Origin: Candidatus Nanoarchaeia archaeon
Lineage (GTDB): Archaea; Nanobdellota; Nanobdellia; SCGC-AAA011-G17; JACPNG01
Direction of reading: 5' to 3'
Assembly (NCBI GenBank): GCA_028714375.1
Contig: JAQTMK010000002.1
Coordinates: 21,812 to 85,811 of the forward strand
DNA length: 64,000 nt
Part shown: one piece after another, positions 7,228 through 55,323 of the stretch
Position numbering within the stretch: position 1 is the stretch's first letter
Layout: each line of letters starts with the position of its first letter
Translations under genes and position numbers: made by a program
Notes under the pieces: generated by a model
Database searches by the model: none
What the model was told of the DNA's origin: nothing
What the model saw: the letters and a program-made list of their open reading frames with translations, nothing else

Positions 7228-7229
7228 CT

Positions 7230-9727: not shown

Positions 9728-9749
9728 CCTCTTAAAAGTCATATAATAT

Positions 9750-9833: not shown

Positions 9834-9839
9834 TTTTAA

Positions 9840-22678: not shown

Positions 22679-24138
22679 CCTTTATAAAACATGATTCTCG
22701 AGATAATTGAACTAACTCCTCTAATGATCCTTCTTATATCTTTTAAGTTTCTTATAGACCTCATATTCTGGAAGATAACTCTGGGAGAAGTGTAATATCT
22801 CAGGTTCATCTTTCTTATAATCCCATTTAGTTCTTTCTTAGAAAGATATTTGGTTTTCATAACAGCGCCATGACAACCATCAAAATCTTCCCAAGAATTA
22901 TATTCAAATAAATTCATAGATCTAGCCTCTTCATACAATTTTGTTCCAGGGAATGCCGCAGCCAATGTAAATTGCACATAATCTGCATGAACTTGTTTTG
23001 CAAATTTAATAGTTTCACTGATTGTTTCTTTTGACTCTTCTGGTAATCCAATAACAAAACTTCCAGAAGACATGATCCCTGCTTTTTTAGTTAATTTAAC
23101 CGCATTAATTATTTGTTCTTTAGTTATCCCTTTAGAGGAGGTTTTTAATATTTTATCGCTGCCAGATTCAAAACCATAAAAAATATCTTTGCATCCAGCT
23201 TTTTTCATTAATCCCAATGTTTCTTCGTCAACATTATTAACTCTAGCCATGCACCTCCATATCAGATTGATTTTTCTTTTTATTAATTCATTGCATAACT
23301 CCCTTACTCTTTCCTTATCTATTAGGAAAGAATCATCATCAAAATAAATTTCATCTATATTGTAATTTCTTTTCAAAAACTCTATTTCTTCTGCTACATT
23401 CTTTGCAGACCTTGCCCTAAATTTATGACCATATAAAGTATCAGGCCATAAACAAAAAGTACACCGATAAGGACACCCCCTAGTAGAAATTAATAACGCA
23501 GCTTTTTTACCAGTATAAAATGCTTGTTGATATTTTTCAATTCTAAAGTCTTCTCTGTCAGCAAAAGGCAACTCATCCAAATTATCAATCAATTCTCTTG
23601 GATCATTAACAATTACCTTATCTTTTTCCCTATAAGTAATCCCCCTAATCTCTTTAACACCTTTTTTATTAGAATAATTGTTACACAATTCCAATAAAGT
23701 ACAATCAAGTTCTCCTTTTATTATAAGATCTACAAATTTGTAATTCTCAATAATTTCTTTGTCAAAATAACTTGCATGAGGCCCCCACAAAACAACTAAA
23801 CAGTTAACTTCTTTTTTGATTTGAAAAGCTGTTTCCAAATCATACATTATTGATGGTGTTGAAACTTCTAGTAAGATAATTTCAGGATTAAATTTTTTGA
23901 CATAATCAACAAAAGCAGGGATCCCAAACTCTTTTTCCACAGCATCAATACCTTTTGCATCAAAACCATTTTTCTTAAGAACTGCCAAAGCAGTCGCTAA
24001 ATAAACTGGGAAAGTTAAAACTTTATCTCCCCTCCTGTGTGGCCATCTAATGTTGGTCCTCGTTCCATATCCTTCTCCAGGCCAAGGAGGATTAGCAATT
24101 AAAACTCTCATATTAATCAATATTTCTCCAAACAACAA
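22675..24138 (-). CDS. B12-binding-domain radical SAM enzyme
   Basis: N-terminal B12-binding-like domain plus STRGCPYRCTFCLWP (CxxxCxxC). Paralogous to the radical SAM enzymes at 17899, 33634, 35165 and 45097. Confidence 0.85.
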   Translation of the reverse strand: MLFGEILINMRVLIANPPWPGEGYGTRTNIRWPHRRGDKVLTFPVYLATALAVLKKNGFDAKGIDAVEKEFGIPAFVDYVKKFNPEIILLEVSTPSIMYDLETAFQIKKEVNCLVVLWGPHASYFDKEIIENYKFVDLIIKGELDCTLLELCNNYSNKKGVKEIRGITYREKDKVIVNDPRELIDNLDELPFADREDFRIEKYQQAFYTGKKAALLISTRGCPYRCTFCLWPDTLYGHKFRARSAKNVAEEIEFLKRNYNIDEIYFDDDSFLIDKERVRELCNELIKRKINLIWRCMARVNNVDEETLGLMKKAGCKDIFYGFESGSDKILKTSSKGITKEQIINAVKLTKKAGIMSSGSFVIGLPEESKETISETIKFAKQVHADYVQFTLAAAFPGTKLYEEARSMNLFEYNSWEDFDGCHGAVMKTKYLSKKELNGIIRKMNLRYYTSPRVIFQNMRSIRNLKDIRRIIRGVSSIISRIMFYKG

Positions 24139-24171: not shown

Positions 24172-25305
24172 ATGAAACAAAATCAATTTTCTAGGACTGA
24201 ACAATTAGGATATTTCATACTCTCAAGGTTACCATTCAAGAAAAATATACTAAAGATTTTAAATAAAAAAAGGTTGGATAATATTAAAAAATTGAAAACT
24301 CCACTAAATCTTGTTTATTACATTACCAATAATTGTAACCTAAGATGTAAACATTGTTTCTACTGGAAGAACCTTAACAAAAATAATAAGAATGAATTAA
24401 CCCAGGAAGAACTGATTAAAATAGCAAAGAGTCTGAAACATCCATTAAATGTTTTATCAATAACTGGAGGAGAACCCTTTCTGAGAAAAGACATAGTTGA
24501 GGTTTGTGATCTTTTTTACAAACATAATAACACAAAGAGGATTAACATAACAACAAATGGCTTTGACTCAGAATTTATTTATGAGTCCGTAAAAAGAATC
24601 CTAAAGGATAATCCAAGGAAAAGACTTACGATCTTTATATCTCTTGATGGTATGGAATCCACCAATAATAAGATAAGAAGTAATGACAAGGCGTTTGCAA
24701 AGGCAACAGAAACAATAAAAAAATTAAAGCAAATTAAAAATTCGAACCTCTCATTACTGATTGCAACAACGATCCATAAAGAAAACTACCGAGAACTTCC
24801 TGAATTAATTAATTATTTAAAACTACTCAAGGTTGTACATAAGTTCAATCTATTAAGGGATAGTTCTATGGTTTTAGGTGTTGATAAAGACCTTACCTAT
24901 AATTTTAACCCACAATACTTCCATCCTCTTGAAAAAGAAGAGTTGTTCCATGTACACTCCTTAATAAAAGAAAACATAACAAATTTGCCATCCAAAGTAG
25001 AAGCACTAAAAATAAAAAATTCAATAGAAATTATCTTAAATAAAATTTCACCAGTAAAATGCCTCGCAAGATACACGGATGCAGTTCTGTTCCCAGAAGG
25101 AGATATCTCAATCTGTGAACCAACAAAAACTTTTACAAATATAAGAGATTATAACTATGATTTTTATAGGTTATGGAATTCTGAAGAAACTAAAAAAATA
25201 AAAGAAAAATTAAGGAATTGCAGTTGTATACAACCTGAAAACTTATTAAATTCAATGAAATACGATACAAATACCCTTACAAATGTATTTTCTCGCAAAT
25301 ACTGA
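24172..25305 (+). CDS. Radical SAM enzyme with a Cys-containing C-terminal (twitch/SPASM-like) extension
   Basis: YYITNNCNLRCKHCFY (CxxxCxxC), GGEPFL glycine-rich SAM motif, and C-terminal cysteines (CLARY...ICEPT...CSCIQ). Confidence 0.75.
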   Translation: MKQNQFSRTEQLGYFILSRLPFKKNILKILNKKRLDNIKKLKTPLNLVYYITNNCNLRCKHCFYWKNLNKNNKNELTQEELIKIAKSLKHPLNVLSITGGEPFLRKDIVEVCDLFYKHNNTKRINITTNGFDSEFIYESVKRILKDNPRKRLTIFISLDGMESTNNKIRSNDKAFAKATETIKKLKQIKNSNLSLLIATTIHKENYRELPELINYLKLLKVVHKFNLLRDSSMVLGVDKDLTYNFNPQYFHPLEKEELFHVHSLIKENITNLPSKVEALKIKNSIEIILNKISPVKCLARYTDAVLFPEGDISICEPTKTFTNIRDYNYDFYRLWNSEETKKIKEKLRNCSCIQPENLLNSMKYDTNTLTNVFSRKY

Positions 25306-37740: not shown

Positions 37741-38445
37741 ACTAATATCTTTGCTCTCACTAAAATGAAATGCTTTTTTTCTTAACAAACAATTATGACA
37801 TTTCCCACAATGGATTGGGAGATTACCTCTAAAACCGCCACCATTATAACAACTGTAAGTATATTGCCATGGAACTTTTAATTTACTTCCAATTTCAACA
37901 ACCTCTGGTTTATCTTTGTCAATAAAAGGAGCTAAAAATTTATATCCTCCATGAAATGTAGCTTCCTCACTTAGTAAATTTAATTTCTTTAAAAATTCAG
38001 GAGTTGTATCTTTCAGTTGAACCTGTCCTTCGTCTTTTATTCCAAGATAAACATCCCATCTTTCCTTTGTTGAGATAAACAAAGATTCAGCATGGCTTAA
38101 TCCAACCAAACCAAAAATAGCATTCCTGCATGGAACCCAGTATAATATCTCATGTTCCTGTTCTTTTTTAATATCTTTTAAATCTTCATCCCTGACATCC
38201 GGTAGTTTATCTTTTCTGTTAATCAAAGATGTGCTAATTTTTCCAAGCCATTCCAGGTTAATTTCTTTGAATTCAGCATTTAATTCATAAGCTATTTTTT
38301 TAACACAAAATCTTTCTTCTTCAAGTGGTTTTTGACCATAATTAAAGAATAATAATATCATTTTTTTAGGATTCATAGATTTAACTTTATATGCAACAGC
38401 CACACTATCAAGTCCTCCCGAACACAAAATAATTGCATTATTCAT
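37726..38445 (-). CDS. queC: QueC-like PP-loop ATPase (7-cyano-7-deazaguanine synthase family)
   Basis: PP-loop ILCSGGLDS near the N-terminus and a C-terminal zinc-binding cluster CYNGGGFRGNLPIHCGKCHNCLLRKKAF, as in QueC. Confidence 0.7.
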   Translation of the reverse strand: MNNAIILCSGGLDSVAVAYKVKSMNPKKMILLFFNYGQKPLEEERFCVKKIAYELNAEFKEINLEWLGKISTSLINRKDKLPDVRDEDLKDIKKEQEHEILYWVPCRNAIFGLVGLSHAESLFISTKERWDVYLGIKDEGQVQLKDTTPEFLKKLNLLSEEATFHGGYKFLAPFIDKDKPEVVEIGSKLKVPWQYTYSCYNGGGFRGNLPIHCGKCHNCLLRKKAFHFSESKDISLYLS

Positions 38446-38497
38446 GTTTATTCTGGAACAGAAAAAACCTTATAAATCTATACCCTAACCAAATTAG

Positions 38498-38692
38498 ATG
38501 GAAAAAGAGCTTAAAGACTTAAAACCTGGAGAAAAAATCAATCTTGAAGGAAATAACTATATTGTAAAAGAAATTGAAGTGTCAAATATAGGGAAACACG
38601 GAAGATCAAAGTGCAGGTTAGTTGTTATTACTTCAAAAAAAGAAGAAAAAATTTTAGTAAGACTTTCTGACATGAAAGCAGAACTAATATGA
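38498..38692 (+). CDS. Stand-alone aIF5A-like N-terminal (KOW/SH3-like) domain mini-protein (64 aa)
   Basis: LKPGEKINLEGNNYIVKEIEVSNIGKHGRSKCRLVV parallels the aIF5A/eIF5A N-domain including the hypusine-loop consensus GKHG.aK. The C-terminal OB domain is absent. Confidence 0.5.
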   Translation: MEKELKDLKPGEKINLEGNNYIVKEIEVSNIGKHGRSKCRLVVITSKKEEKILVRLSDMKAELI

Positions 38693-39600
38693 TCCATATT
38701 ATTATAGCTTCTTATAATGAGCCAAAATCAACAGAAAAAGCAGTTAATGCATTTCTTAATCAGAATATTCCAAAACCTTTTGAAATCATAGTTTCAGATC
38801 CTTTCCCAGAAGTTGAAGAATATTTGGTTGACAAATTTAGTAAAAAAATAAGATTTTTCCAGGATCCTGATGAAGGTAAATCCTTTGCTTTAAATATGAT
38901 TCTTGAAGAGATTTATTCTGAAAACAAAAACGATATTATTATTTTCACAGATGGGGATGTTTATATTTCAGAAAACGCTGTAAAAGAGATTTTGGATAAA
39001 TTCAAAAACCCGGAAATTGGTTTGGTTTGCGGTCATCCTGTTTCTTTAAATTCAAGAAATGAAAAATATGGTTATTATTCTCATTTATTTTTTGATGAGA
39101 TGAATTTAACTAGAAAAAAACTAAGTGAAAAAAAAGAGTTCTTTGAAGTCTCCGGCTATTTATTCGCAATAAGAAATGGCATAATAAAAAATTTCCCAGT
39201 GGAAAGTTCAGAAGATAATATTATTCCAATTCTATTATGGAACAAAGGATACAAACTAAGTTACGCTGAAGAAGCAAAAGTCTATGTTTTAAATCCCCAG
39301 AATGAAAAAGACTGGCTAACTCAGAAAAAAAGAAACATAAAAGGTCATCTTGCTTTGGAAAAATTAGTTGATAAGATACCTAAAAGAAAAAATACCTTCT
39401 TGCAGGAAGCTTTTAGGGGTTTTAAGATTATGTTCAGGCACCCAAAAAATTTTAAAGAATTTTTCTGGTTGATTAACTCTGCATTTCTAAGACTAAAAGC
39501 CTGGAAGCTGGCTAAAAAAGACTTGAAAAAAGGGAAAGAATACAAAGACGGCTGGCGTGGTTATGAAGGAACTACAGATTCAACCAAACCATTGGATTAG
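38689..39600 (+). CDS. GT2 (GT-A fold) glycosyltransferase
   Basis: HIIIASYNEPKSTEKAVNAFLNQ ... IIFTDGDVY (DxD). ATGA overlap with the upstream mini-ORF. Confidence 0.75.
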   Translation: MIHIIIASYNEPKSTEKAVNAFLNQNIPKPFEIIVSDPFPEVEEYLVDKFSKKIRFFQDPDEGKSFALNMILEEIYSENKNDIIIFTDGDVYISENAVKEILDKFKNPEIGLVCGHPVSLNSRNEKYGYYSHLFFDEMNLTRKKLSEKKEFFEVSGYLFAIRNGIIKNFPVESSEDNIIPILLWNKGYKLSYAEEAKVYVLNPQNEKDWLTQKKRNIKGHLALEKLVDKIPKRKNTFLQEAFRGFKIMFRHPKNFKEFFWLINSAFLRLKAWKLAKKDLKKGKEYKDGWRGYEGTTDSTKPLD

Positions 39601-39636: not shown

Positions 39637-40008
39637 ATGGATACATTAGAAGAAAAAATTAAGGGAGCTATAGAAAAAGAGTTACTTAAAGCGATCACCA
39701 ATCCAAAAGCTCGATTAAAAGATCGTCTAGACGCAGTCGACCAAATAAATAACTTTAAATTAGATGAATATGATCAGTCCAGTTTGATTATTAAAGCGAT
39801 CAAGAAGATGATGGGTTATGAGCCAAGAAAATTATTTTATAGATTACCCACCCCAAATAACCAAGAAGTAATTTATAAACTTATAAGAGATGGGATTCAT
39901 AAAATTGAACCACCTATACGCGCTAATACTGCTGATACGATCCTAGAATTGTATCCTAAAGGTTCATATCCCTATGATATGGCATTCAGTTGCTATTTTG
40001 ATGATTAA
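39637..40008 (+). CDS. Hypothetical cytoplasmic protein
   Basis: Clean ORF, no recognisable motif. Confidence 0.35.
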   Translation: MDTLEEKIKGAIEKELLKAITNPKARLKDRLDAVDQINNFKLDEYDQSSLIIKAIKKMMGYEPRKLFYRLPTPNNQEVIYKLIRDGIHKIEPPIRANTADTILELYPKGSYPYDMAFSCYFDD

Positions 40009-40402
40009 TTTTTTTCTTTAATTCCGTCTTCAACTCATCCAAATTCTCAACTAATTTAACAGAATTCAAAACCATAACACAAACTCTGTCAAACTGGTTT
40101 AGACTAGTCTTGTCTTCAACCAACCCAATAACCGGAATGTTTTTAGCATAAGCATAACCAATTTCCCATGCAGTTCCACTTCCAATCCCTTTCCAATCTA
40201 AGATAGCTATCATCAATCCACATGAATCTATTACTTTAGAATCCTTAATAAAAAAAGGCTTAGAATCCCCTTTGGTAAAAACTCCAACATCTCTGTGAGG
40301 CAAAAAAGTATCAAAACCTAGCTCCTTACATATCTTATCAATTTTCTCAAGCTTTTTCCTTTGTTTTTCTTCCCATAAAGGCCCAGCTACGTAAATTTTC
40401 AT
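39986..40402 (-). CDS. Nucleoside 2-deoxyribosyltransferase-like (NDT/PF05014-like) protein
   Basis: MKIYVAGPLW at the proposed start (an internal Met of the ORF-track frame) and GTAWEIGYAYAKNIPVIGL match the NDT-family motifs. Confidence 0.55.
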   Translation of the reverse strand: MKIYVAGPLWEEKQRKKLEKIDKICKELGFDTFLPHRDVGVFTKGDSKPFFIKDSKVIDSCGLMIAILDWKGIGSGTAWEIGYAYAKNIPVIGLVEDKTSLNQFDRVCVMVLNSVKLVENLDELKTELKKKINHQNSN

Positions 40403-40453: not shown

Positions 40454-41569
40454 ATGCAATTTAAATGGAATAAAAACTGTAAGGAATTCACCGCTTATGG
40501 CGGTTTTGCCTGCGATTTAATCAAAACAGAAGGCTACAAATCCTGTGAAGAGTGCAAATTCTATGACCCTTACTCAGAAAAGATATTAATAATAAAACTT
40601 GGAGCAATTGGAGATGTGATAAGAACAACTCCAATACTTACCGCACTAAGAAGAAAATATGAAAACCCCCAGATAATCTGGCTTGTAAAAGAGGAATCCA
40701 TAGATGCATTAAAAAATAATTATTTAATAGATAAAATCTACATCTATAATCAAGAAACTCTATTAAAATTAAAATATGAAAAGTTTGATATTTTATATTC
40801 TCTGGAAACAGATATGCCTGGAACTGCAATAGCCAATGAAATAAAAGCAGACAAAAAATATGGATTCTATCTAGATGAGTTTGGACAGCCTTCTGCATTC
40901 AATAAAGAAGCAGAATTTATAATTGAAAAGGCATTGTCAGATTATCTTAATAAAAATAATAGAAAAACCTATCAGCAATATATTTTTGAAGCATCACATC
41001 TGCCATTTACAAACGAAGAGCCAATTCTAAACCTAAGTGAACATCAGAGGTTCTTTGCTTCAGAATTCCTTCACAAGAATAATCTAAGAAAAGAAGATAA
41101 GATTCTAGGTATTCACATTGGTGGCGGAGGAAAAAGATGGCCTTCAAAAGTCTGGCACAAAGATGAAGTATTAAAATTTATAAGATTATTAAAAGATAAA
41201 TACAAAGTTATAATTTTCTCAAGTACCCAGGAAAAAGAAATTCAAAAAGAATTAATTAACAATCCAGAAATAAAAAATTATGTTTACCCAAATAACCCAG
41301 AAAATTCTTTAGGAGAATTTATTGCAGTAGCAAACTTATGTGAAACAATAGTAACTGGAGACAGTATGGCTTTGCATGTTTCAACTGCTCTAAAGAAAAA
41401 AACAATAGCATTGTTCTTCTGCACTCCAGACTGGGAAATAGAAACTTATGGAAGAGTTAAAAAGTTAGTTTCTCCTTTATTGATGAAGTATTTCTTCACA
41501 GATCAATACCATGAAGATTTAGTAAAAAGTATTACAGCAGAACAAGTCTATAGTAAATTAGAACAATAA
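40454..41569 (+). CDS. GT9 glycosyltransferase (heptosyltransferase-like) with an N-terminal Cys-rich extension
   Basis: ILIIKLGAIGDVIRTTPILTALRRKYENPQIIWLV (GT9 signature), C-terminal GDSMALHVSTAL block, and N-terminal CDLIKTEGYKSCEECKFY. Confidence 0.75.
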   Translation: MQFKWNKNCKEFTAYGGFACDLIKTEGYKSCEECKFYDPYSEKILIIKLGAIGDVIRTTPILTALRRKYENPQIIWLVKEESIDALKNNYLIDKIYIYNQETLLKLKYEKFDILYSLETDMPGTAIANEIKADKKYGFYLDEFGQPSAFNKEAEFIIEKALSDYLNKNNRKTYQQYIFEASHLPFTNEEPILNLSEHQRFFASEFLHKNNLRKEDKILGIHIGGGGKRWPSKVWHKDEVLKFIRLLKDKYKVIIFSSTQEKEIQKELINNPEIKNYVYPNNPENSLGEFIAVANLCETIVTGDSMALHVSTALKKKTIALFFCTPDWEIETYGRVKKLVSPLLMKYFFTDQYHEDLVKSITAEQVYSKLEQ

Positions 41570-41600: not shown

Positions 41601-43316
41601 ATGTCTGAGGAAAATCTTCTAAAAGAAAAGTTTAAAGAAATAAAAAATGATAAATTAATCTTTATTCTGTTAGTTATTGTGATTATTCTGGGTATCTTTA
41701 CCAGAGTTCAGGATACTTCTGGAATCAGTTACTGGGGGGATGATGAATCAACTATCCCAGTTGGATTATTATTTTTTTATCCCCATACATATTTTCCAGG
41801 ACTTTCTGGAGTGTCAGAACCCCCACTAGGAAATCTTATTATTGCATCTGGATGCATGTTATCTGGAGAAGATTTCTCCAAAGTTACGGAGATTCAACCT
41901 TCATTTTATCCTGGAAGAGAACTACTCCTGGGAGAGCCTTTAATTAATGCGCAGGATTATTGCCATGCCCCCATAATCCTTTTCGGAATCCTCTTTTTCT
42001 TAGCCGTTATAGTTATTGCAATTTTATTGTTAAACCGATACTCTGCAATTTATGTAATTTCATTTTTTGCATTTTTGCCTGAATTATTAACATATTCAAG
42101 ATATATTCACACAGATATAATTTATATGACATTCTCAGCAATAGGTTTGATCTTCCTGTTCCTTTTCTTTAAATCAGAAAAACAAACCAAAAAAGAAAAA
42201 CTATTTTTAATTCTTTCAGTTTCTTTTTTTGGATTAGCCTCTGCAACTAAGTTTCCAGGATTGGGTTTTATAGCTTTTGCAGGGATAATCTTCCTAATAA
42301 AATTCTGGGATGAGATAAAAACAACTTCTAATGAAAAAATAAAACCCTTGGTAATTTTTGCCATAGAATCAATAATTGCATTTTTATTCTTCTTTTTATT
42401 GCCATTCCAGCTAAATCCAAAAAATCTGATAGATGTGTTAAAATCATATTCTACTGTGTATAGTGATGTCTCAGGTTTTACATTTGGTAGTTTATTTTTT
42501 AAGAATATTTACAATTTATTTTTGAACGTCAATATTCTAGACCTTATCCTGCTGATCGTTTCAATTTACATAATATATAAATTAATAAAAAATAAAGAAA
42601 AAACAAAGGAAGAAAAATTTATTATTTATCTTTCAAGCTGGTTTATCCTCCTAAGTTTCTTTTCATATGCATTAAAATTATTCAGAATATCTATCCCATT
42701 CCTAATGGGAGTAATGTGTTTGGTATCTTTGGTATTTTCAAATAAATATTATCCATTAAAGAAAAACCGAAAATTAATTTTTGGTATTTTTATAATCATT
42801 TATTTGTTATTCTCAGTATTTAGTTCCCTATCAAACAGTCCAACATTCTTAAATAAGAATTCATTGGTATGCTCTATAAGTCCGGATGAAAGTTCATGCA
42901 ATCCAAATCCTATGAATCATGCTGCAAGACAGATTTCAGACTATCTAAAACCAATACTTAAAGAAGAAGATACATTTATTCCAATCACTCCGGTAACCCT
43001 TACTTATTATCTGAATCGTGGAGAATCTCTTTATAATCTACAATTTAATTCTCAGTTCGAACAGCAGTTTAAAAAATCTGCAGACTTAGCAGATTATATT
43101 GCCTACTATCACCCAGGGAATAAATCAGTAAGGTTTGTTATTATAAATCCAAATCGTCTACCAGAACAAAAAGGATTCTACAGTTTATATCAGGAGTTCA
43201 CTCCAACCAAAATAATCAAACTTGCAGGCAAAGATGCAGTTTATATTTATGATTTAAAGAATTTATCTAAAAAAGACATTGGGATAAATACAGCACCTGG
43301 TACAAACACTATTTAA
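41601..43316 (+). CDS. Large polytopic membrane protein, probable GT-C-fold glycosyltransferase
   Basis: At least 12 TM segments, an acidic first-loop motif YWGDDEST, and a large C-terminal extracytoplasmic domain. Architecture is like ArnT/PMT/AglB-type transferases. Confidence 0.45.
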   Translation: MSEENLLKEKFKEIKNDKLIFILLVIVIILGIFTRVQDTSGISYWGDDESTIPVGLLFFYPHTYFPGLSGVSEPPLGNLIIASGCMLSGEDFSKVTEIQPSFYPGRELLLGEPLINAQDYCHAPIILFGILFFLAVIVIAILLLNRYSAIYVISFFAFLPELLTYSRYIHTDIIYMTFSAIGLIFLFLFFKSEKQTKKEKLFLILSVSFFGLASATKFPGLGFIAFAGIIFLIKFWDEIKTTSNEKIKPLVIFAIESIIAFLFFFLLPFQLNPKNLIDVLKSYSTVYSDVSGFTFGSLFFKNIYNLFLNVNILDLILLIVSIYIIYKLIKNKEKTKEEKFIIYLSSWFILLSFFSYALKLFRISIPFLMGVMCLVSLVFSNKYYPLKKNRKLIFGIFIIIYLLFSVFSSLSNSPTFLNKNSLVCSISPDESSCNPNPMNHAARQISDYLKPILKEEDTFIPITPVTLTYYLNRGESLYNLQFNSQFEQQFKKSADLADYIAYYHPGNKSVRFVIINPNRLPEQKGFYSLYQEFTPTKIIKLAGKDAVYIYDLKNLSKKDIGINTAPGTNTI

Positions 43317-44324
43317 TTTTTTACCATTAAATAATTTTCTTGTGTTCTTCATATTTTGACTATTCCAGATTTGTTTGATTTTTTTATCCTTCACATTGCC
43401 AGCAGAATCCCTTAACATTGTACATGGGAATATTTCCCCATAACTGTCAACTAACAAACTTCCCCATAATATTGAACAGGGTTGAACTTCATTATATAAT
43501 CTTAATCCTAAATGAACTTCATTGGTTTCAGCCTCTTTTTTAAGATCAGAAATAACATTCCAAAATTCATCTTTCTCTTCCTTTGGAATTAAAAGTTCCT
43601 GAGGCAAAATCCACTGACTTGGACAAACATCTCGGTTATAAATTCCGTCTACATAATTTTTTATCTCAGGAGTTAAAACCGTAATATACTGGGCATCATA
43701 CTCCCTAATCTCCATTTTTTTCATTAAAGCAGGCATTTCCTTAAGGTGCTTATAATTTAGATTGGAAATAACAGTATTGACTCTCAGGAATGGTTTATCA
43801 AGATTTAATTCTTTTTTATACCTATTTATCATTTCATTTGCTTTCATAACTTTTTCAAAACTTCCGCTAACACCTCTGATGTCATCATGTATTTCAGCAG
43901 TAGGAGCATCTAATGAAAAACATAATTCATCTAATCCAGATTCAACAATCTGTTTAGCCATTTTTTCATTAATCATAAAAGCATTTGTAGTTATTGTAGT
44001 AAAAAATTTCAGTCTTTTAGCAACTTTGATATAATCAAAAATAGATTTTTCCAAGAAAGGTTCTCCTCCGCAAAACATCAAAGTTTTTGTCAAAGGATTC
44101 CATTTCCTTATATCTTGAATAACCTGAACTATTTCAGAATCAGTCAATAATTTTTTGTTTTCAGTATGTTTAGAAAGACCATCTTTCCATAGATTACATT
44201 GTTTGCATTTTAAGCAGCATCTTTCATTGACTTCAATTACAGCATAAAATGGTGGTGTAAAAGCCCTGTCTGTAAATGTCAGTAACTGAAATCCCTTTTC
44301 CATAAGTTTCCTTACTTTTGGCAT
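43263..44324 (-). CDS. Radical SAM enzyme with a C-terminal SPASM domain
   Basis: AVIEVNERCCLKCKQCNLW (CxxxCxxC), GGEPFL, and C-terminal Cys clusters (CSILWG...FPCTML...CTRCCIYPN) typical of SPASM auxiliary Fe-S sites. Confidence 0.8.
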   Translation of the reverse strand: MPKVRKLMEKGFQLLTFTDRAFTPPFYAVIEVNERCCLKCKQCNLWKDGLSKHTENKKLLTDSEIVQVIQDIRKWNPLTKTLMFCGGEPFLEKSIFDYIKVAKRLKFFTTITTNAFMINEKMAKQIVESGLDELCFSLDAPTAEIHDDIRGVSGSFEKVMKANEMINRYKKELNLDKPFLRVNTVISNLNYKHLKEMPALMKKMEIREYDAQYITVLTPEIKNYVDGIYNRDVCPSQWILPQELLIPKEEKDEFWNVISDLKKEAETNEVHLGLRLYNEVQPCSILWGSLLVDSYGEIFPCTMLRDSAGNVKDKKIKQIWNSQNMKNTRKLFNGKKLNSVCTRCCIYPNVFFR

Positions 44325-44425: not shown

Positions 44426-45100
44426 ATGAAAACTTCAGTAATATTCTTAACTTTAAACGAAGAAGCTTCTTTGGAAGAAATGTACAACCAAATGCCAAAC
44501 AAACAAGATATTTACGAATTTCTATTAGTAGATGGCGGTTCTAAAGATAAAACTCTAGAAATAGCTAAAAGATTAGGAATGAAAATAGTAAACCAAAAAG
44601 AAACCGGAAGAGGAAGAGGTTTCTATGAAGGAATGAAAGCAGCAAAAGGGGATATTCTAATTTTTTTCAGTCCAGATGGAAACGAAGACCCAAGAGAAAT
44701 ACCTTTAATGATTAAAAAAATAGAAGAAGGTTATGATATGGTTATTGCTTCAAGATTCATGAAACAATCAGCAAGTCATGATGTTACATTCATAAGAAGA
44801 ATAGGAAACAGAAGTTATGCAATACTAACAAACTTAGTTTTTGGAACAAGATTAAAAGATGCGGTAAATGGTTTCAGGGCAATAAGAAAAGATATAATGG
44901 AAAGATTAAATCTGGAAGCAAAAAGATTTGACATAGAGATGGAAATGACAACAAAAGTCTTAAAACTAAAAGGAAAAATAATAGAAGTTCCAACAACAGA
45001 ACCAAAAAGAATTGAAGGTAGGTCAAGATTAAGAACCTTTTACGATGGTTATTTAATATATAAAAGATTTTTAAAATCATTAAAATACAAAGAAATATGA
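44426..45100 (+). CDS. GT2 glycosyltransferase, dolichyl-phosphate sugar synthase-like
   Basis: VIFLTLNEEASL ... LLVDGGSKDKTLEIAKRLG ... SPDGNEDP (DxD). Confidence 0.8.
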   Translation: MKTSVIFLTLNEEASLEEMYNQMPNKQDIYEFLLVDGGSKDKTLEIAKRLGMKIVNQKETGRGRGFYEGMKAAKGDILIFFSPDGNEDPREIPLMIKKIEEGYDMVIASRFMKQSASHDVTFIRRIGNRSYAILTNLVFGTRLKDAVNGFRAIRKDIMERLNLEAKRFDIEMEMTTKVLKLKGKIIEVPTTEPKRIEGRSRLRTFYDGYLIYKRFLKSLKYKEI

Positions 45101-46416
45101 AATGCCTGTTTTTAAACCCACCAAACAAGGAAAAATTTGTAAAAGAAGGTAGATGCCAGCACGAAGCTAGTTTCTTCTCTGCATTATACCCTCCAATAAC
45201 TTTGGCAATTTGTGCACAGATAGCAAAAGATAGTTCTCATGAAGTTGATTTCATAGATGCAATTGCAGGCAATATCACAATAGAGGATTTCCTGGAAAAC
45301 ATAAAAGAATATGATTTTATACTGGTGGATATAACAACACCGACATTCATTAACGATGCAAACATAATAAAAAAGATAAAAGAAAAATATCCAAAAACAT
45401 TTATAGCGATTTATGGATTCCATGCAAATTATGATCCAAAAAGATCTCTGAAAGAAAGCAACGCAGATGCAGTTTTAGTAGGAGAACCAGAAGCCCATAT
45501 CCAAGACTTCCTAAAGAATCCAAAAAAAGGTGTAACAGAAAAAAAAGAAGTTGAAGATTTAGACAGTTTACCTTTTCCTGCAAGGGATTTAATGTCTTTG
45601 GAAAAGTACAGGCTGGCAAATACAGGCCAGAAATTCACAACAATAGTTACAGGGAGAGGCTGTCCATTTAATTGTTCCTTCTGTGTTGTTCCGTTTAATT
45701 ACGGAAGAAAAGCAAGACTAAGAAGTCCTGAAATAATTGTAAAAGAAATCAAAGAATGTGTTGAAAAATATAATATTAAAAATTTCTGGTTGAACAATGA
45801 TACTTTCACAATAAAAAAAGATCAGGTTATGGAATTATGCAATTTAATAGAAAAACACAAACTAAAAATAAATTGGATGAGCAATTCAAGAGTTGATACT
45901 GTAGACTTGGAAATGTTCCAGGCAATGAAAAAATCCGGATGTTGGTTATTATCATTTGGAATAGAGTCAGGAAATCCTGAAATATTAAAGAACATAAACA
46001 AAAATATCACGTTGGATAAAGTTCAAAACACCATCAAGAATGCAAAAAAAGCAAAATTACTAACCATGGCTCATTATGTTTTGGGTTTACCAGGAGAAAC
46101 CGAACAAACAATTGATAATACAATTAACTTTGCAATCAAATTAGATTCTGATTTTGCTGATTTTTTTATCTTAACTCCATTCCCTGGAGCTAAAATTTAT
46201 GAAGACTTTAAGAAAGAAGGAATATTAGAAATAGAAAACTGGGATTCATACAGATATGCTCAAAAGATATTTAAAACAGAGCTTCCTTTAGAAAAATATC
46301 AAAAACAGGCCTACAGAAAGTTTTATTTAAGGCCAAAAAAGATAATACCTATATTAAAAATTGTTAAACCTGGAGCAATCTCAAGTATGTTCAGGTTCTT
46401 AAAAATACTAAAATGA
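45097..46416 (+). CDS. B12-binding-domain radical SAM enzyme
   Basis: N-terminal B12-like domain and GRGCPFNCSFCVVPF. ATGA overlaps with both the upstream GT2 and the downstream GT-C gene. Confidence 0.85.
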   Translation: MKCLFLNPPNKEKFVKEGRCQHEASFFSALYPPITLAICAQIAKDSSHEVDFIDAIAGNITIEDFLENIKEYDFILVDITTPTFINDANIIKKIKEKYPKTFIAIYGFHANYDPKRSLKESNADAVLVGEPEAHIQDFLKNPKKGVTEKKEVEDLDSLPFPARDLMSLEKYRLANTGQKFTTIVTGRGCPFNCSFCVVPFNYGRKARLRSPEIIVKEIKECVEKYNIKNFWLNNDTFTIKKDQVMELCNLIEKHKLKINWMSNSRVDTVDLEMFQAMKKSGCWLLSFGIESGNPEILKNINKNITLDKVQNTIKNAKKAKLLTMAHYVLGLPGETEQTIDNTINFAIKLDSDFADFFILTPFPGAKIYEDFKKEGILEIENWDSYRYAQKIFKTELPLEKYQKQAYRKFYLRPKKIIPILKIVKPGAISSMFRFLKILK

Positions 46417-52701: not shown

Positions 52702-55323
52702 CTATTGAACTCCTTCAGGGAAATAATTTGCCAGATACATGGTTCTTAGCTCATCGCTAATACTATATCCATCCGGATAATTGATTTTCCATACCTTTGT
52801 AGGTCCGATAATTCTTCCATTATAGTATGCCAAAGGAACCCCCAAAGATTCATCATTATAAACTAACTTGAATGCAGGAGTTTCCTGTTCAAATAAGTAT
52901 AATCTTCCAAAGTTTCCTTTCATAACTTTATTAGACATATATAATAGAGCTCCGATCCTGTCTCCTTGAGTTCCATCAATCTTAGTTATATATCTTAAGC
53001 ATCCTCCGATTGGACTTTCAATATCAAGCTTATAAATCTGTTTTTCAAAGTAGATACAATTAATCGGAACATTATATTGTTTATTATTATATATCACAAA
53101 AGCATAAGGAATCCCGGTAAATGTGACGTTCCCATCTGTGTTTACACTTATTGGAACTAAAAATCCTCCAATACCAGCACCAAATCTGGGCAATAAAGTA
53201 TCATCAATAATTATATCCTCATCTATAGCAGTCCCACCCAAATAAACATAGCTGGTTTCATTTCTTGTTTCTTGAGTCTTAGTTCTATCAATAACAAAAG
53301 AACTAATCTGAGTATACCTATCAAAGTCCTTATTAGATCCGATTGATGAAAATGCAGGGTATTTTCCAATCTCATCACTAACCATTAAAAGATAACTTGC
53401 ATTGTGGGCATATAAAAATTCTAAAGATTCAGAATCATTCTGTCCAGTTATTACATTTCTCCCCATAAAATAGTTCCATGAACCTATCGCATTTCCTCCA
53501 TCAGTTACTGTGGCTCTTTCTCCACCGGTTTGCACCCAATATCCATAATCCCACCAATGGGCAAAGACAGCATCTTTTGGAGTATTTTCTCTTACCCACT
53601 GCATAGCATACTGCCACTGTCCATTATAGATTGGTCCAGTAACTTTAGCGATACTGATATCATCTTTAGCATAAGTAATAAATGGATTTATCATTAAAAT
53701 TAAGATTAAACCAATTGCTAAAATTTTATAATTTTTATTTTTAATTTTTTCATTTGCAAACAAAATTCCTTCATACAATAAATATGCTACCAAAATGGCA
53801 ACTATTGGCGAGAATATGAATAATAATCTTACTGCTCTTAATGCAGCTAACAAAGTAATTATAAACCATATCAAAACAAAAACATAAGACTTAGAACTTT
53901 CAAAGATTTTTCCAAATTCTTCTTTATTACTCTTAAACAATCTATAGTAACCATAAATTAAAAGTCCTAAAAATATTAATGTAGAACCAACAAGCAAGAA
54001 GATTGCCAGATTTGAGTGCCCATTAAGGGACGCAGCATCCATGGAGTATTTATGTATTCCAAACAAAACAATAAAAACTGTATAAGCAACAGTCAAATAA
54101 ATTTTTGATTTTAATTTTTTAACCAAATTCCAAAATAGCAAGATTGATCCGGCCATAAAAAATAAAGTAACCCAATTCCCATAGTTTCCAAGTATATCAC
54201 TAAAATAGGATTCATGGCTCTCTGCCACTGTTTTACTCCATCTGTCTTCCAGTGGATTAACAAGTTCATGGACTAATGCATGGGGTTTATCAATTATAAA
54301 TAAAGGATCAACAAAGACGGAAGCAAACAAAATCAATAATACTAATGATATAATTGTAATTAAAAATCCCTTTGGAAGTTTCTCAGTAATAGTTTCCTTA
54401 ATTTTGATTAACTTAGCTTCAAAGACAGTATAGTAAACTAAACCCATAAAAAATGCAACAAATGCGATACCAGATGTAAATGAAACCAATAAAGCAGTTA
54501 GGCTAAACTTCCCCAAAATTACAATTGGTAACATAACAATAAACCAAGAGGAGTAAAGTAAAAAGTCTTTTTTCTCAAATTTAAAGAATAATAGCGAAAC
54601 AATTACAAATAATCCTAATATCATATAAACAAAATTAACTCCCCCCCAAACCCTGCTTAGTATTCCAGTAGCAACTCCAGCCAAAGCACCAAACAAAATG
54701 TGCTTCCATGGTTTATCACTTTTATATCCGACAAAATAAAAGTAAAAAGTCATAAAAAAGAATATTGTTGCCATTGGCTCTTTATCTGCAACACCGGCCA
54801 TGGTCCTATAAAGAAATGTTGGAATTACAGCTAAAAATGCAGTTGCTATTAAAGCAATCTTATCATTAAATAACTTTCTAACCAATAAGAAGAAGAAAAT
54901 AAGTCCGATAACAAATGCGATTGGTGGATATAGATTAGCAGCTAACTCAATAGTCATGTTTGGATTAAATATGCTTAAAAATTTAAACAAGTAAACAATG
55001 GAATAACTTAAAAAGCTAAATTCCACTATGCTCGAGTATCCAATCGGAACATATCTCATATAGTCAACCGAGGGTAAACTTCCAGTTTCCAAAATAGTTC
55101 TCGAATATCTTAAAAATGCGAATGGATCTAAATCTGCAGTAATATATCCTCCGGTTGTCGCATCTTTTAATAAAGGCACATTAAGGGTTCTGATATAAAA
55201 ACCAAAAATTAAGATTGCAACTAAAATAACTATACTTATCCATAAATTATTCTTTTTTAAGTTCTTTAATAAATTTCTTTTCCTCTCTTCCACTATACTA
55301 GAACTATTTTCCAAGTCATTCAT
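52702..55323 (-). CDS. aglB: Oligosaccharyltransferase AglB (STT3 family)
   Basis: 873 aa, N-terminal 13-TM domain and a large C-terminal domain carrying the WWDYGYW catalytic-site motif (AVFAHWWDYGYWVQ). Confidence 0.9.
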   Translation of the reverse strand: MNDLENSSSIVEERKRNLLKNLKKNNLWISIVILVAILIFGFYIRTLNVPLLKDATTGGYITADLDPFAFLRYSRTILETGSLPSVDYMRYVPIGYSSIVEFSFLSYSIVYLFKFLSIFNPNMTIELAANLYPPIAFVIGLIFFFLLVRKLFNDKIALIATAFLAVIPTFLYRTMAGVADKEPMATIFFFMTFYFYFVGYKSDKPWKHILFGALAGVATGILSRVWGGVNFVYMILGLFVIVSLLFFKFEKKDFLLYSSWFIVMLPIVILGKFSLTALLVSFTSGIAFVAFFMGLVYYTVFEAKLIKIKETITEKLPKGFLITIISLVLLILFASVFVDPLFIIDKPHALVHELVNPLEDRWSKTVAESHESYFSDILGNYGNWVTLFFMAGSILLFWNLVKKLKSKIYLTVAYTVFIVLFGIHKYSMDAASLNGHSNLAIFLLVGSTLIFLGLLIYGYYRLFKSNKEEFGKIFESSKSYVFVLIWFIITLLAALRAVRLLFIFSPIVAILVAYLLYEGILFANEKIKNKNYKILAIGLILILMINPFITYAKDDISIAKVTGPIYNGQWQYAMQWVRENTPKDAVFAHWWDYGYWVQTGGERATVTDGGNAIGSWNYFMGRNVITGQNDSESLEFLYAHNASYLLMVSDEIGKYPAFSSIGSNKDFDRYTQISSFVIDRTKTQETRNETSYVYLGGTAIDEDIIIDDTLLPRFGAGIGGFLVPISVNTDGNVTFTGIPYAFVIYNNKQYNVPINCIYFEKQIYKLDIESPIGGCLRYITKIDGTQGDRIGALLYMSNKVMKGNFGRLYLFEQETPAFKLVYNDESLGVPLAYYNGRIIGPTKVWKINYPDGYSISDELRTMYLANYFPEGVQ

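Follow-up and report, generated by a model that had tools for sequence, protein, structure and literature searches.

The loop tip of IF5A and EF-P carries hypusine, beta-lysylation, rhamnosylation or aminopentanol. It is among the most thoroughly examined sites of modification in biology, and so far the ribosome has without exception been the setting of that work. The N-terminal domain of IF5A contacts the acceptor end of the P-site tRNA, and loss of the OB domain removes half of the interface of IF5A with the ribosome and tRNA. In human eIF5A, the substitution K47D abolishes hypusination. Among paralogues of these factors, EfpL is reported to keep all domains and to act on the ribosome (PMC11611912). 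We found no description in the literature of a stand-alone IF5A/EF-P domain I, and none of aIF5A or hypusine in Woese- or Pacearchaeota.

Small partner proteins are familiar from cellulose-synthase-like glycosyltransferases: IcaD, PgaD, DPM2/3 and the PilZ barrel of BcsA serve related GT2 enzymes, and control of a gating loop by a beta-barrel is an established design. The surface glycans of host-dependent DPANN archaea are thought to mediate host contact. Eukaryotic queuosine glycosyltransferases belong to the GT2 and GT4 families. Members of the QueC family attach 7-carboxy-7-deazaguanine to amines of proteins (Wassarman et al., bioRxiv 10.1101/2025.04.06.647259; Libby et al., PMC13329287). 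The canonical QueC signature consists of SGGxDS, YxQxHxxE, VPxRN, YPDC, K165, Y189 and C(x)8CxxCxxC (Libby et al. 2026, PMC13329287), and Cap9 retains it (PMC13329287). Because Cap9 keeps the same core, QueC motifs do not tell synthases and protein ligases apart.

Here we describe a locus in which an IF5A domain and a QueC-family gene lie side by side among glycosyltransferase genes. The window (the whole stretch of DNA analysed, 64 kb) contains the following features.

36592..37740, + strand: GT4 glycosyltransferase of 382 aa with a GT-B fold (Pfam)
37726..38445, - strand: QueC-family PP-loop ATPase of 239 aa, divergent from mini-IF5A (Pfam QueC, 8e-39)
38446..38497, no strand: divergent intergenic region of 52 nt with one near-palindromic TATA box (sequence; putative promoter)
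38498..38692, + strand: mini-IF5A, a stand-alone aIF5A N-domain (KOW/SH3-like barrel) of 64 aa (ORF, profiles, fold, selection)
38689..39600, + strand: GT2 of 303 aa, a cellulose-synthase-like catalytic domain (Pfam, orthologues, AF2)
39986..40402, - strand: nucleoside 2-deoxyribosyltransferase-like (NDT-like) protein (Pfam PF05014, 5e-19; PDB 7m5h, 7e-11)
40454..41569, + strand: GT9 of 371 aa, heptosyltransferase-like, GT-B (Pfam PF01075; PDB 3tov, 1psw)
41601..43316, + strand: PMT-family GT-C membrane glycosyltransferase of 571 aa, downstream of GT9 (Pfam PMT)

The ORF at 38498-38692 (+) runs from an ATG to a TGA stop, and members of its family are at present annotated as 'hypothetical protein'. 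The preliminary description, made by eye, had taken it for an N-domain of aIF5A, and the profile matches agree. Pfam IF5A-like_N (PF21485) matches at E=5e-5 (23.5 bits, short of the gathering score of 27.1) and EFP_N at E=3.6e-4. NCBIfam aIF5A PRK03999 matches at E=5e-8 over model positions 5-54 of 129 only, and its 32.5 bits against a cut-off of 138 miss the whole-protein threshold, as does the score of 20.4 against the TIGR00037 cut-off of 75.45. The top PDB sequence match is aIF5A 1bkb. At family level, IF5A-like_N is matched by 25 of 29 members at E<=0.01 (best E=1.6e-9), and when hhalign compares the family with a DPANN aIF5A of 130 aa, the match covers aIF5A residues 9-67 at a probability of 97.9%. 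The top 50 PDB neighbours found by Foldseek for the AF2 model (pLDDT 76) are a/eIF5A and EF-P domain I only (TM 0.7-0.8); they include the complexes of EF-P domain I with EarP (5wxk, 6j7m), of EF-P with GenX (3a5z) and of aIF5A with deoxyhypusine synthase (DHS; 8put). The resemblance to the N-domain of aIF5A is genuine and clearly exceeds chance, yet it stays under curated cut-offs for a single short protein; from the fold and profile-profile results, domain-level homology is secure. One relative already carries a precomputed PF21485 match.

mini-IF5A ends at the aIF5A interdomain linker and, as had been noted, lacks the C-terminal OB-fold domain (PF01287). A tblastn search of the window and ten related loci with two full-length DPANN aIF5A proteins as queries matched the N-domain ORF alone and revealed no OB-domain coding potential in any frame. 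In L003-L006, an apparent 120-aa aIF5A alignment reads through the stop into the in-frame GT2 and gains no score.

The family occurs in several hundred species of the Woese-, Pace- and Nanoarchaeota (DPANN). Its length is 61-72 aa across 78 species and ~70 metagenome contigs, the metagenome loci having been found with a tighter family alignment set; the broad family alignment has no conserved stretch of 7-10 columns. Of the 48 cluster representatives from an exhaustive search, ~35 are free-standing proteins of that length, and full-length aIF5A surfaces only at E~1e-5. The family is under purifying selection, with dN/dS ~0.05-0.09 (0.09 at dS 0.36 between the window and L001; 0.045 between the window and L002). 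It is basic throughout (median pI 9.3, net +4), including a conserved basic N-terminus.

The preliminary description had expected a canonical aIF5A elsewhere, and in the related genome L081 a separate, complete 129-aa aIF5A is encoded on the same contig as mini-IF5A. A second mini-IF5A genome probably also has one, and we counted 3,531 canonical aIF5A in these lineages, where the factor is ubiquitous. The two proteins coexist, and within the same lineages the canonical factor retains 65-84% identity, against 35-55% for mini-IF5A. mini-IF5A is a true paralogue of the N-terminal domain of aIF5A, free-standing and under selection, which arose by aIF5A duplication and OB-domain loss in the Woese-/Pacearchaeota branch of DPANN. 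Of the options offered earlier, the truncated paralogue was the correct one, and the regulatory role suggested with it is possible. That the ORF is a pseudogene remnant, a split gene or a sequencing-error frameshift of a full-length aIF5A, as also considered there, is extremely improbable: the missing OB domain and nothing else speaks for it, and we rejected it on the conserved length and low dN/dS, on the ORF having its own conserved TATA box, on GT2 starting at the stop codon with nothing OB-like nearby in any frame, and on the intact aIF5A of L081.

The order of the surrounding genes is fixed, as is their orientation: GT4 runs towards the QueC-like gene and overlaps its 3' end, the QueC-like gene diverges from mini-IF5A, GT2 follows mini-IF5A on the same strand, the NDT-like gene is convergent with GT2 and divergent from GT9 (in places a GT9-NUDIX fusion), and a PMT-like GT-C gene follows GT9. 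In GTDB species, the mini-ORF lies upstream of GT2 in 78 of 79 evaluable loci (GT2-anchored); in metagenomes, GT2 lies downstream of the mini-ORF in 71 of 74 (mini-ORF-anchored). The distance from the mini-IF5A stop to the GT2 start is -8 to +5 nt in 54/76 loci. In the window, the stop forms an ATGA overlap with the GT2 ATG (38689), and the two genes are translationally coupled. Both this overlap and the glycan-island setting, in which the module usually lies, had been recorded before; the adjacency proves near-invariant, not incidental. An unbiased census of neighbours within +/-6 kb in 80 loci recovered the QueC-like gene in 74 (in all of them divergent from mini-IF5A), GT9 in 73, the NDT-like gene in 72 (71 with the orientation above), the same GT4 family in 62 and the PMT-like gene in 53. 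mini-IF5A lies at the centre of a compact seven-gene module that is widely conserved.

The TATA box in the 52-nt divergent region, TTATAAAT at 38470-38477, stands 21-28 nt before the ATG of mini-IF5A and 25-32 nt before that of the QueC-like gene, and the same cTTATAAA box is seen ~25-30 nt upstream of the ATG in 6/6 loci compared. mini-IF5A apparently shares this box with the QueC-like gene, and by its sequence the region is probably a bidirectional archaeal promoter giving leaderless or short-leader mRNAs. A mirror-tree comparison of distance matrices for mini-IF5A, GT2, QueC-like, NDT-like and GT9 (67 loci) gave r of 0.66-0.78 throughout and singled out no partner of mini-IF5A, for which the partial correlations (0.12-0.35, highest with GT9) are not discriminating in a 64-column protein.

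The modification loop deserves closer description, as the preliminary description had called it intact. In the window it reads S29-N-I-G-K33-H-G-R-S-K38-C-R40 and protrudes from the barrel; the motif quoted at the time, SNIGKHGRSKC, is present but typical of its own clade only. The family consensus is S-D-I-G-K-Q-G-K-x-K-[CV]-R, with S29 at 100%, K33 at 99%, K38 at 100%, R40 at 100% and E27 at 99%, so that S29, K33, K38 and R40 are held at 99-100% while the remaining protein drifts to 35-55% identity. The lysine, both glycines, the downstream lysine and the arginine are kept, and in this respect the claim stood. It did not for the rest: position 34 is Gln in 66% and His in 28%, the equivalent of human Lys47 is Asp, Glu or Asn in 85% (D62/E14/N9; Asn in the window), and 12/79 members fall outside the standard-length pattern, most with 1-7 extra residues. 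The family thus departs from the invariant, fixed-length hypusination loop (S/T)-K-x-G-K-H-G-x-x-K, of which the canonical aIF5A of the same lineages retains S-K-T-G-K-H-G. The N-terminus is M-[KE]-K-x-[AL], and Gly2 is not conserved. There is no DHS gene in the 64-kb window.

These features bear on whether mini-IF5A could act independently of its neighbours, either as an autonomous minimal translation factor still placed at the ribosomal E/P-site region and aiding peptide-bond formation, or as a decoy that competes with aIF5A for DHS and so regulates hypusination. mini-IF5A has kept the aIF5A domain with its Lys/Gly/Lys/Arg loop residues, a canonical aIF5A is available as a target of regulation, and DHS homologues exist in some Woesearchaeota (PMC10407285). 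However, synteny with GT2 of 96-99% in both directions speaks for a function linked to the module, the changes at His34, at the Lys47 equivalent and in loop length run against it, and the canonical factor is far more conserved. We consider this very unlikely.

We next turn to the enzymes to which mini-IF5A is linked. GT2 has the DxD, ED and QxxRN motifs and no transmembrane channel, and ends in a conserved, flexible tail (Y-x-D-G-W-R...S-T-K-P-L-D). It has >690 orthologues at >50% identity (295 GTDB species). Its AF2 model (pLDDT 92, pTM 0.91) has low confidence in the tail, its nearest structures are PcManGT, HAS, Chs1 and BcsA, and its top NCBIfam match is PgaC/IcaA. The NDT-like protein likely starts at the ATG at 40402 (MKIYVAGPLW...), the mechanical ORF extending to 40459, and 67/67 sequences have the motif G-[TS]-x-[WFYV]-E-x-G, which includes the catalytic Glu. 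For GT9, the NCBIfam heptosyltransferase I/II matches are under the cut-off; at 9 GTDB and 2 metagenome loci it is encoded in a single frame together with a NUDIX domain, and an N-terminal four-Cys cluster marks the window clade (17/67). The PMT-like position is occupied by a ~518-aa membrane family, and PMT/PMT_2 genes are also present in L001, L003, L007 and L010.

Taken with the translational coupling and the near-obligate adjacency of the two genes, the GT2 data could mean that mini-IF5A is a non-covalent accessory or regulatory subunit of this enzyme, which is the main rival to the reading we favour and which we regard as possible but doubtful. A small basic beta-barrel would bind the channel-less GT2, where it could help to place an anionic substrate, anchor the enzyme at the membrane or govern the gating-loop-like tail. 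The GT2 fold near PcManGT, HAS, Chs and BcsA, the absence of TM helices, the conserved low-confidence tail (D-G-W-R...S-T-K), the PgaC/IcaA match, the basic charge and N-terminus of mini-IF5A, and the presence of GT4, GT9 and GT-C in a glycan island all suit such a subunit. It leaves unexplained, however, both the tight divergent pairing with the QueC-like gene and the invariance of the IF5A modification-site residues (G-K-x-G-x-x-K-x-R), and the known small partners of GT2 enzymes are membrane proteins or PilZ domains, none of them IF5A-like.

The QueC-like protein scores 113.2 bits against TIGR00364 (canonical QueC), short of the equivalog cut-off of 150.3, and its sole PDB sequence match is Cap9 (9nto_B). 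SGGxDS is conserved at 100%, as are C188 and CxxCxxC, and Y35, Q37, E42, R99, N100, D133, K165, Y189 and the Zn cysteines are kept (96-100%). In all members His39 is lost (S/A/T) and Cys134 is lost (T/A/S), and the Cys spacer is longer. Residue 131, an aromatic position that is essential in E. coli, is Y/F in 85% and Leu in the window. No QueD, QueE, GTP cyclohydrolase or tRNA-guanine transglycosylase gene is present in the 64-kb window, and none is recurrent within +/-6 kb in the 80 loci. A Vut_1/YhhQ-type transporter for 7-deazaguanine precursors occurs within the module, at varied positions, in L002, L026, L027, L052, L058 and L123, and because it is inserted in several loci it ties the module to 7-deazaguanine chemistry. 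The PADLOC QueC model matches the QueC-like protein (2.6e-24) and PADLOC matches no other module protein; an anti-phage defence island was rejected, since the module occurs almost throughout the lineage rather than sporadically.

A link to 7-deazaguanine could also run through RNA, with mini-IF5A as the RNA- or tRNA-binding subunit of a machinery for 7-deazaguanine tRNA modification or tRNA glycosylation. The free domain would then deliver GT2 (and GT4) to tRNA bearing a 7-deazaguanine base, as in eukaryotic queuosine glycosylation. The QueC-like gene and the occasional Vut_1 transporter fit this, as does the retained basic character of an ancestral RNA-contacting domain, and some DPANN carry bacterial queuosine genes (PMC8204110). 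On the other hand, the transglycosylase, QueD and QueE are missing from the window and not recurrent in the census, a membrane GT-C enzyme belongs to the module (53/80), which lies among surface-glycan genes, and a variable loop length would be odd for precise RNA contact. We judge it quite unlikely.

We tentatively favour a reading, drawn from the conservation and the gene linkage together, in which the enzymes of the module modify mini-IF5A on its loop lysine. mini-IF5A would no longer be a ribosomal factor but a dedicated protein acceptor or carrier, whose protruding loop would present the invariant Lys33, the lysine of the hypusine site, to these enzymes. On the model of Cap9 and QatC, the QueC-family ATPase would activate a carboxylate by adenylation, most plausibly that of 7-carboxy-7-deazaguanine, and join it to the amine of the lysine. 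The adduct would then be elaborated by the NDT-like N-glycosyl enzyme and by the glycosyltransferases, with the coupled GT2 acting first. In support, domain I of IF5A/EF-P is by itself a recognised modification substrate, as the EarP, GenX and DHS complexes show; the near-invariant loop residues, the protein ligation known from QueC-family enzymes, the Cap9 match and the Vut_1 transporter also speak for it.

Several points count against this acceptor role. The residue that Cap9 and QatC modify is an N-terminal glycine rather than the side chain of a lysine; the QueC-like protein, with a near-full canonical signature, may be a housekeeping preQ0 synthase; and in the window it has Leu at the essential aromatic position 131. 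GT2 is structurally closest to membrane-associated synthases of the polysaccharide/polyprenyl type, and we know of no lysine-directed GT2. The GT2 fold, the GT-C enzyme and the glycan islands also suit a machinery that assembles glycolipids or glycans and in which the mini-protein is no more than a subunit, and the mirror-tree comparison favoured no partner. A fuller version would be a lineage-wide housekeeping pathway in which the QueC-family ligase puts the 7-deazaguanine carboxylate on the hypusine-site Lys, the NDT-like enzyme N-glycosylates it and GT2, GT9 and GT4 extend it, yielding a nucleobase-glycan-protein conjugate; this we think unlikely.

Across a whole family, a loop-bearing IF5A domain has been freed from the translation factor and hard-wired to a QueC-family enzyme and several glycosyltransferases, and this linkage, judged from gene order and sequence, suggests a new, non-ribosomal job for the hypusine loop. 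If the module enzymes modify the loop, both the protein modification and this application of 7-deazaguanine chemistry would be new; if mini-IF5A is instead a subunit, it would be a new type of regulator for cellulose-synthase-like glycosyltransferases. Were the full deazaguanylation pathway true, deazaguanylation of a lysine would be without precedent, as would the reaction in archaea and in a role other than anti-phage defence, and the known ways of modifying the IF5A/EF-P loop would rise to five, the new one chemically unrelated to the other four. The seven module genes offer a testable handle; few gene clusters of these host-dependent archaea, which are uncultivated, are so conserved and still uncharacterised.

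Among related known systems, mini-IF5A can be compared with a/eIF5A, with which it shares homologous sequence, the SH3-like/KOW barrel with a protruding beta-hairpin loop, the hypusine-position Lys with its flanking Gly and downstream Lys and Arg, and a basic charge like that of the aIF5A N-domain. It differs in the missing OB domain, in scores under the full-length and domain cut-offs, in a loop of variable length whose His is mostly Gln and whose upstream Lys is Asp/Glu/Asn, and in much faster evolution. It is encoded in a glycosyltransferase/QueC-like module, whereas ribosomal and housekeeping genes adjoin canonical aIF5A at the single locus examined. Like EfpL/YeiP, it is a lineage-specific paralogue of the EF-P/IF5A family alongside a canonical factor, but it keeps domain I only and is tied to non-translational genes.

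The pairing of a putative acceptor gene with a glycosyltransferase gene recalls EF-P and EarP, where the target is the loop tip of a KOW-like domain, where EarP recognises and glycosylates EF-P domain I alone, and where the two genes are adjacent, as are mini-IF5A and GT2 (78/79 and 71/74 loci). In contrast, the GT2 here is a cellulose-synthase-like GT-A enzyme and EarP a GT-B arginine rhamnosyltransferase of GT104, the tip residue is Lys33 in mini-IF5A and Arg in EF-P, and EF-P is a working three-domain factor, while mini-IF5A is a domain only whose modification is predicted.

As in Cap9-CdnD (type IV CBASS) and QatC-QatB, a QueC-family ATPase gene stands beside that of a small or partner protein. 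The QueC-like protein keeps SGGxDS, YxQ...E, VPxRN, D133 and the Zn motifs, with Cap9 its only solved relative, and the attack of a protein amine on an adenylated carboxylate is chemistry that would suit a lysine. Unlike those systems, the module has no CD-NTase, Cap10/TGT or QatA/B/D in the window or the 80-locus census; it is near-universal in its lineage and in a glycan context rather than a sporadic defence island, and it additionally has the NDT-like protein, NUDIX and four glycosyltransferases. The known targets there are N-terminal glycines, whereas in mini-IF5A, which has no conserved Gly2, a lysine side chain would be the nucleophile. Finally, IcaA-IcaD, PgaC-PgaD, DPM1-DPM2/3 and the BcsA PilZ domain resemble the locus in joining a cellulose-synthase-like or PgaC-like GT2 to a small co-translated neighbour; their partners are membrane proteins or c-di-GMP-binding PilZ domains, whereas mini-IF5A is a soluble, IF5A-derived barrel beside a GT2 that has no transmembrane segment.

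The 64-aa ORF mini-IF5A is a selected stand-alone IF5A N-domain inside a conserved seven-gene module with a QueC-family ATPase. It comes from a Candidatus Nanoarchaeia (DPANN) metagenome-assembled genome (MAG), in which the protein is annotated as a 'hypothetical protein'; all genomes in this analysis are MAGs or metagenome contigs.

38498-38692, + strand: mini-IF5A ORF, ATG start and TGA stop, product MEKELKDLKPGEKINLEGNNYIVKEIEVSNIGKHGRSKCRLVVITSKKEEKILVRLSDMKAELI

Pfam IF5A-like_N matches mini-IF5A at E=5e-5 (23.5 bits, slightly below the gathering score of 27.1), EFP_N at E=3.6e-4, and the NCBIfam aIF5A model PRK03999 at E=5e-8, with only model positions 5-54 of 129 aligned. These profile matches agree with the alignment to the aIF5A N-domain that the preliminary description had made by eye, as do fold neighbours and the family profile. 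Archaeal and eukaryotic IF5A are the top sequence matches among solved structures. The AF2 model (pLDDT 76) shows a small barrel of beta strands only, whose hairpin loop at about residues 30-38 has low confidence. Its top 50 PDB fold neighbours (query-normalised TM ~0.7-0.8) are exclusively domain I of a/eIF5A and EF-P, among them EF-P domain I with bound rhamnosyltransferase EarP (5wxk, 6j7m), EF-P with bound GenX (3a5z) and aIF5A with bound deoxyhypusine synthase (DHS; 8put). The mini family profile aligns with 97.9% probability to residues 9-67 of a 130-aa DPANN aIF5A, which is the whole N-domain as far as the interdomain linker. Like that domain, the mini proteins are basic (median pI 9.3).

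A word-indexed search recovered six near relatives, every one 64-65 aa long. When 1.8 billion cluster representatives were scanned exhaustively with HMMER, 48 matched. About 35 of these have the same loop and are stand-alone proteins 51-90 aa long; DPANN aIF5A of full length (130-132 aa) appeared only at E~1e-5 to 1e-4. The dN/dS of the mini-gene is 0.09 between the window and the related locus L001 (an unsaturated pair, dS 0.36), and 0.045 between the window and a second locus, L002. As first noted by eye, the ORF has no OB-fold: tblastn with complete aIF5A queries found no OB-domain sequence near the mini-genes in any frame, in the window or related loci, which rules out a frameshifted full-length aIF5A at the mini locus. 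One related contig (L081) encodes a complete 129-aa aIF5A, with N-domain and OB domain, 5.7 kb from its own mini-gene, and a second contig probably also bears a canonical aIF5A. Canonical aIF5A is found throughout these lineages and is better conserved by far: among the best matches listed, identity to the query is 64-84%, whereas most minis from outside the window clade share 33-55% with the window protein. At the one canonical locus examined, the neighbours are ribosomal and housekeeping genes. The family of stand-alone minis, the low dN/dS, the lack of OB sequence and the separate canonical aIF5A therefore exclude a pseudogene, split gene or frameshift, and we give virtually no credence to mini-IF5A being such a product or an artefact. 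Of the options raised initially, the truncated paralogue stands: mini-IF5A is a retained paralogue that has lost its OB domain.

One HMMER match, the 90-aa protein P0150, joins a QueC-like N-terminus (MIILSGGLDS...) to the C-terminal two-thirds of mini-IF5A. Because the QueC-like and mini genes normally lie on opposite strands, it is more likely a chimera of assembly or gene calling than a genuine inversion fusion.

The hypusination loop had been described as intact. This holds for its lysines, arginine and glycines: among 79 members, S29, K33 (the hypusine-position lysine), K38 and R40 are conserved at 99-100%, E27 at 99%, G35 at 96% and G32 at 91%. It does not hold for His34 (Gln in 66%, His in merely 28%), for the position before the loop matching human Lys47 (Asp 62%, Glu 14%, Asn 9%), or for loop length. 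The K47D substitution in human eIF5A abolishes hypusination. Twelve of the 79 loops depart from the standard-length pattern, mostly by 1-7 additional residues, with one in L040, L046, L057, L060, L071, L072 and L074 and long inserts in L020, L028, L037, L051 and L055. These Lys/Gly-rich insertions, of up to ~7 residues, lie upstream of an invariant K-Q-G-x-x-K-x-R segment; we know of none in canonical IF5A, and they could act as a flexible tether or offer several lysines as acceptors. Thus, the lysine at the modification site and the residues C-terminal to it are the most constrained, and the DHS- or ribosome-type context is relaxed.

The first related loci shared one gene order, QueC-like (-), mini-ORF (+), 303-aa GT2 (+), nucleoside 2-deoxyribosyltransferase-like (NDT-like; -) and GT9 (+), which is kept even where the wider surroundings differ. 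In L002, the module lies outside any glycan island and adjoins NAD-salvage genes and ThrRS. The GT2 has an orthologue in 295 GTDB species genomes; co-occurrence was counted in the best 80 of these 295 matches, all Woese-, Pace- or Nanoarchaeota, and in the best 80 of 188 metagenome matches. By the mini family HMM, 78 of the 80 species loci have a mini-ORF upstream of GT2; of the other two, one has a contig that extends just 94 nt beyond GT2 on that side, and one truly lacks a mini-ORF. Anchored on the mini-ORF, GT2 comes next in 71/74 metagenome contigs with sufficient downstream sequence, and a transposase-like ORF or radical-SAM genes in the other three; in L126 and L133 a radical-SAM gene immediately follows the mini-ORF in place of GT2. 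Clustering all ORFs of the 80 species loci against each other, without bias, returned these recurrent families, each at a fixed position:

GT2: 80/80 loci, the anchor
QueC-like: 74/80 loci, divergent from the mini-gene without exception
GT9: 73/80 loci, downstream, + strand
NDT-like: 72/80 loci, convergent with GT2
GT4: 62/80 loci, beyond the QueC-like gene; 36592-37740 in the window
PMT-like GT-C membrane enzyme: 53/80 loci, after GT9; 41601-43316 in the window

The distance from mini stop to GT2 start is -8 to +5 nt in 54/76 loci. Nineteen of these 54 have the identical ATGA overlap noted earlier in the window, where it joins the mini-IF5A TGA to the ATG of the 303-aa GT2 (38689-39600). On sequence grounds, mini-IF5A is evidently co-transcribed and translationally coupled with this cellulose-synthase-like GT2. 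In 6/6 loci compared, a TTATAAA box precedes the mini ATG by ~25-30 nt, and the 52-nt QueC-like/mini intergenic region of the window has one such near-palindromic box at its middle. We infer a bidirectional promoter common to both genes. Synteny of 96-99%, together with the relaxed loop, argues against an autonomous mini-factor or a decoy for DHS, which we regard as very unlikely.

GT9 is heptosyltransferase-like. In the window clade alone (17/67 orthologues), its domain is preceded by a four-cysteine cluster, C-x10-C-x10-C-x2-C (window 40454-40580), which is reminiscent of the metal 'finger' in GT9 enzymes that heptosylate proteins (TibC, for example). In nine species and two metagenome loci, GT9 is followed by a MutT-type NUDIX domain or lies in one frame with it. 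The one-frame ORFs (~425-524 aa; L027, L031, L033, L055, L059, L064, L077, L079, L089; L137, L153) are apparently fusions; other loci have a separate NUDIX gene immediately before or after GT9. This association suggests that the two have a nucleotide-linked donor or by-product in common. In several loci a gene of the Vut_1/YhhQ family (7-deazaguanine precursor transporter) is inserted within the module, at positions that differ between loci, either in the QueC-like/mini interval or downstream of GT2 (L002 9003-9581; L026, L027, L052, L058, L123). Between GT2 and the NDT-like gene, the window has a 123-aa ORF (39637-40008, +) without a Pfam, NCBIfam or PADLOC match or a homologue in the 80 species loci. 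It has the look of an insertion confined to one clade, the module being otherwise compact; L001 has an unrelated 271-aa gene at this position.

The window is a large surface-glycan island, as first described, with AglB/STT3, flippases, ~12 glycosyltransferases, sugar aminotransferases and five B12-radical-SAM genes, a family found near the module in 29/80 loci:

17899-19320, 22675-24138, 33634-35163, 35165-36595 and 45097-46416: B12-binding radical-SAM genes
24172-25305 and 43263-44324: further radical-SAM genes, one with SPASM
52702-55323, - strand: AglB/STT3 oligosaccharyltransferase, 873 aa
55444-57231, + strand: sugar nucleotidyltransferase and DegT-type aminotransferase fusion, 595 aa

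The last two genes mark the surroundings of the module as an N-glycosylation and amino-sugar island. DHS, tRNA-guanine transglycosylase, QueD, QueE and aIF5A were not found within the 64-kb window. A 424-aa fusion of PNP_UDP_1 (purine/uridine nucleoside phosphorylase) and phosphoribosyltransferase domains (13991-15265, -) may salvage nucleosides to nucleotides within a single protein, as would suit a scavenging lifestyle. Two proteins, one with a Kazal-type protease-inhibitor domain (4804-5823, +) and one with a lamin-tail domain (8443-9639, -), are of kinds unusual in archaea and may act at the surface or in host interaction. Genes for tRNA-Arg(TCT) and tRNA-Cys(GCA) lie one base apart (7153-7301, +), and 2.4 kb past them tRNA-Ser(TGA) (9749-9834, +) adjoins an FtsJ-like methyltransferase gene.

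The GT2 model is very confident (pLDDT 92, pTM 0.91), and its predicted fold resembles the 'minimal cellulose-synthase-like' PcManGT and hyaluronan, chitin and cellulose synthases. The protein lacks a transmembrane segment. Its C-terminal tail (Y-x-D-G-W-R...S-T-K-P-L-D), strongly conserved and of low model confidence, we take to be equivalent to the gating loops of BcsA (FxVTxK) and HAS (WGTR). The synthase-like architecture and gating-type tail of GT2, together with the membrane GT-C enzyme and the setting in a glycan island, favour a mini-IF5A that is a non-covalent subunit or regulator of GT2, a reading that we find somewhat doubtful.

The QueC-like protein (37726-38445, -) scores 113 bits, below the NCBI QueC equivalog cut-off of 150. 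Cap9 is its sole sequence match among solved structures, and it matches the PADLOC QueC model, presumably that of type IV CBASS (Cap9). Across 74 members, SGGxDS, Y35, Q37, E42, VPxRN, D133, K165, Y189 and the zinc cysteines are conserved at 95-100%, and His39 and Cys134 are absent from all. These signatures are the published set (PMC13329287), numbered on an E. coli QueC reference that yields the published Y35, R99, Y131, K165 and Y189. Residue 131, where an aromatic is reported essential in E. coli, is Tyr/Phe in 85%, Met in 12% and Leu in the window copy; its segment reads Leu-Lys-Asp-Thr in the window, Tyr/Phe-Pro-Asp-Thr in most of the family and Tyr-Pro-Asp-Cys in canonical QueC. Cap9 likewise retains the canonical core (PMC13329287), and QueC motifs therefore cannot separate a preQ0 synthase from a protein ligase. 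The NDT-like catalytic-Glu motif is present in 67/67 members. Mini-IF5A could instead be a tRNA-binding subunit for 7-deazaguanine-related tRNA glycosylation, which seems unlikely.

By analogy, we tentatively propose that mini-IF5A is a dedicated acceptor or carrier whose loop lysine would be modified by the module enzymes. To our knowledge, all characterised IF5A/EF-P proteins carry a modification at this loop tip. Their modifying enzymes are often encoded adjacent to the substrate gene, and the fold-neighbour structures indicate that these enzymes recognise domain I on its own. QueC-family enzymes can attach 7-carboxy-7-deazaguanine to amines on proteins; N9 then stays free 'for subsequent addition of ribose' (bioRxiv 10.1101/2025.04.06.647259). 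The NDT-like N-glycosyl enzyme and the glycosyltransferases could then act on the free N9 of the adduct.

Our literature searches turned up neither a family of stand-alone IF5A/EF-P domain I proteins nor the mini-IF5A module, and databases name the minis 'hypothetical protein'; were the modification hypothesis true, the novelty would be considerably greater. Mini-IF5A descends from the aIF5A N-domain and appears to work like it, but it falls outside aIF5A by its missing OB domain, scores under the cut-offs and altered loop. It resembles EF-P/EarP in its acceptor-glycosyltransferase arrangement; however, the partner belongs to another glycosyltransferase family and the loop tip is Lys, not Arg. 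The substrate-ligase arrangement recalls Cap9/QatC, whereas mini-IF5A has no N-terminal Gly and its module no defence partners. The module thus has the defining features of neither EF-P/EarP nor Cap9/QatC.
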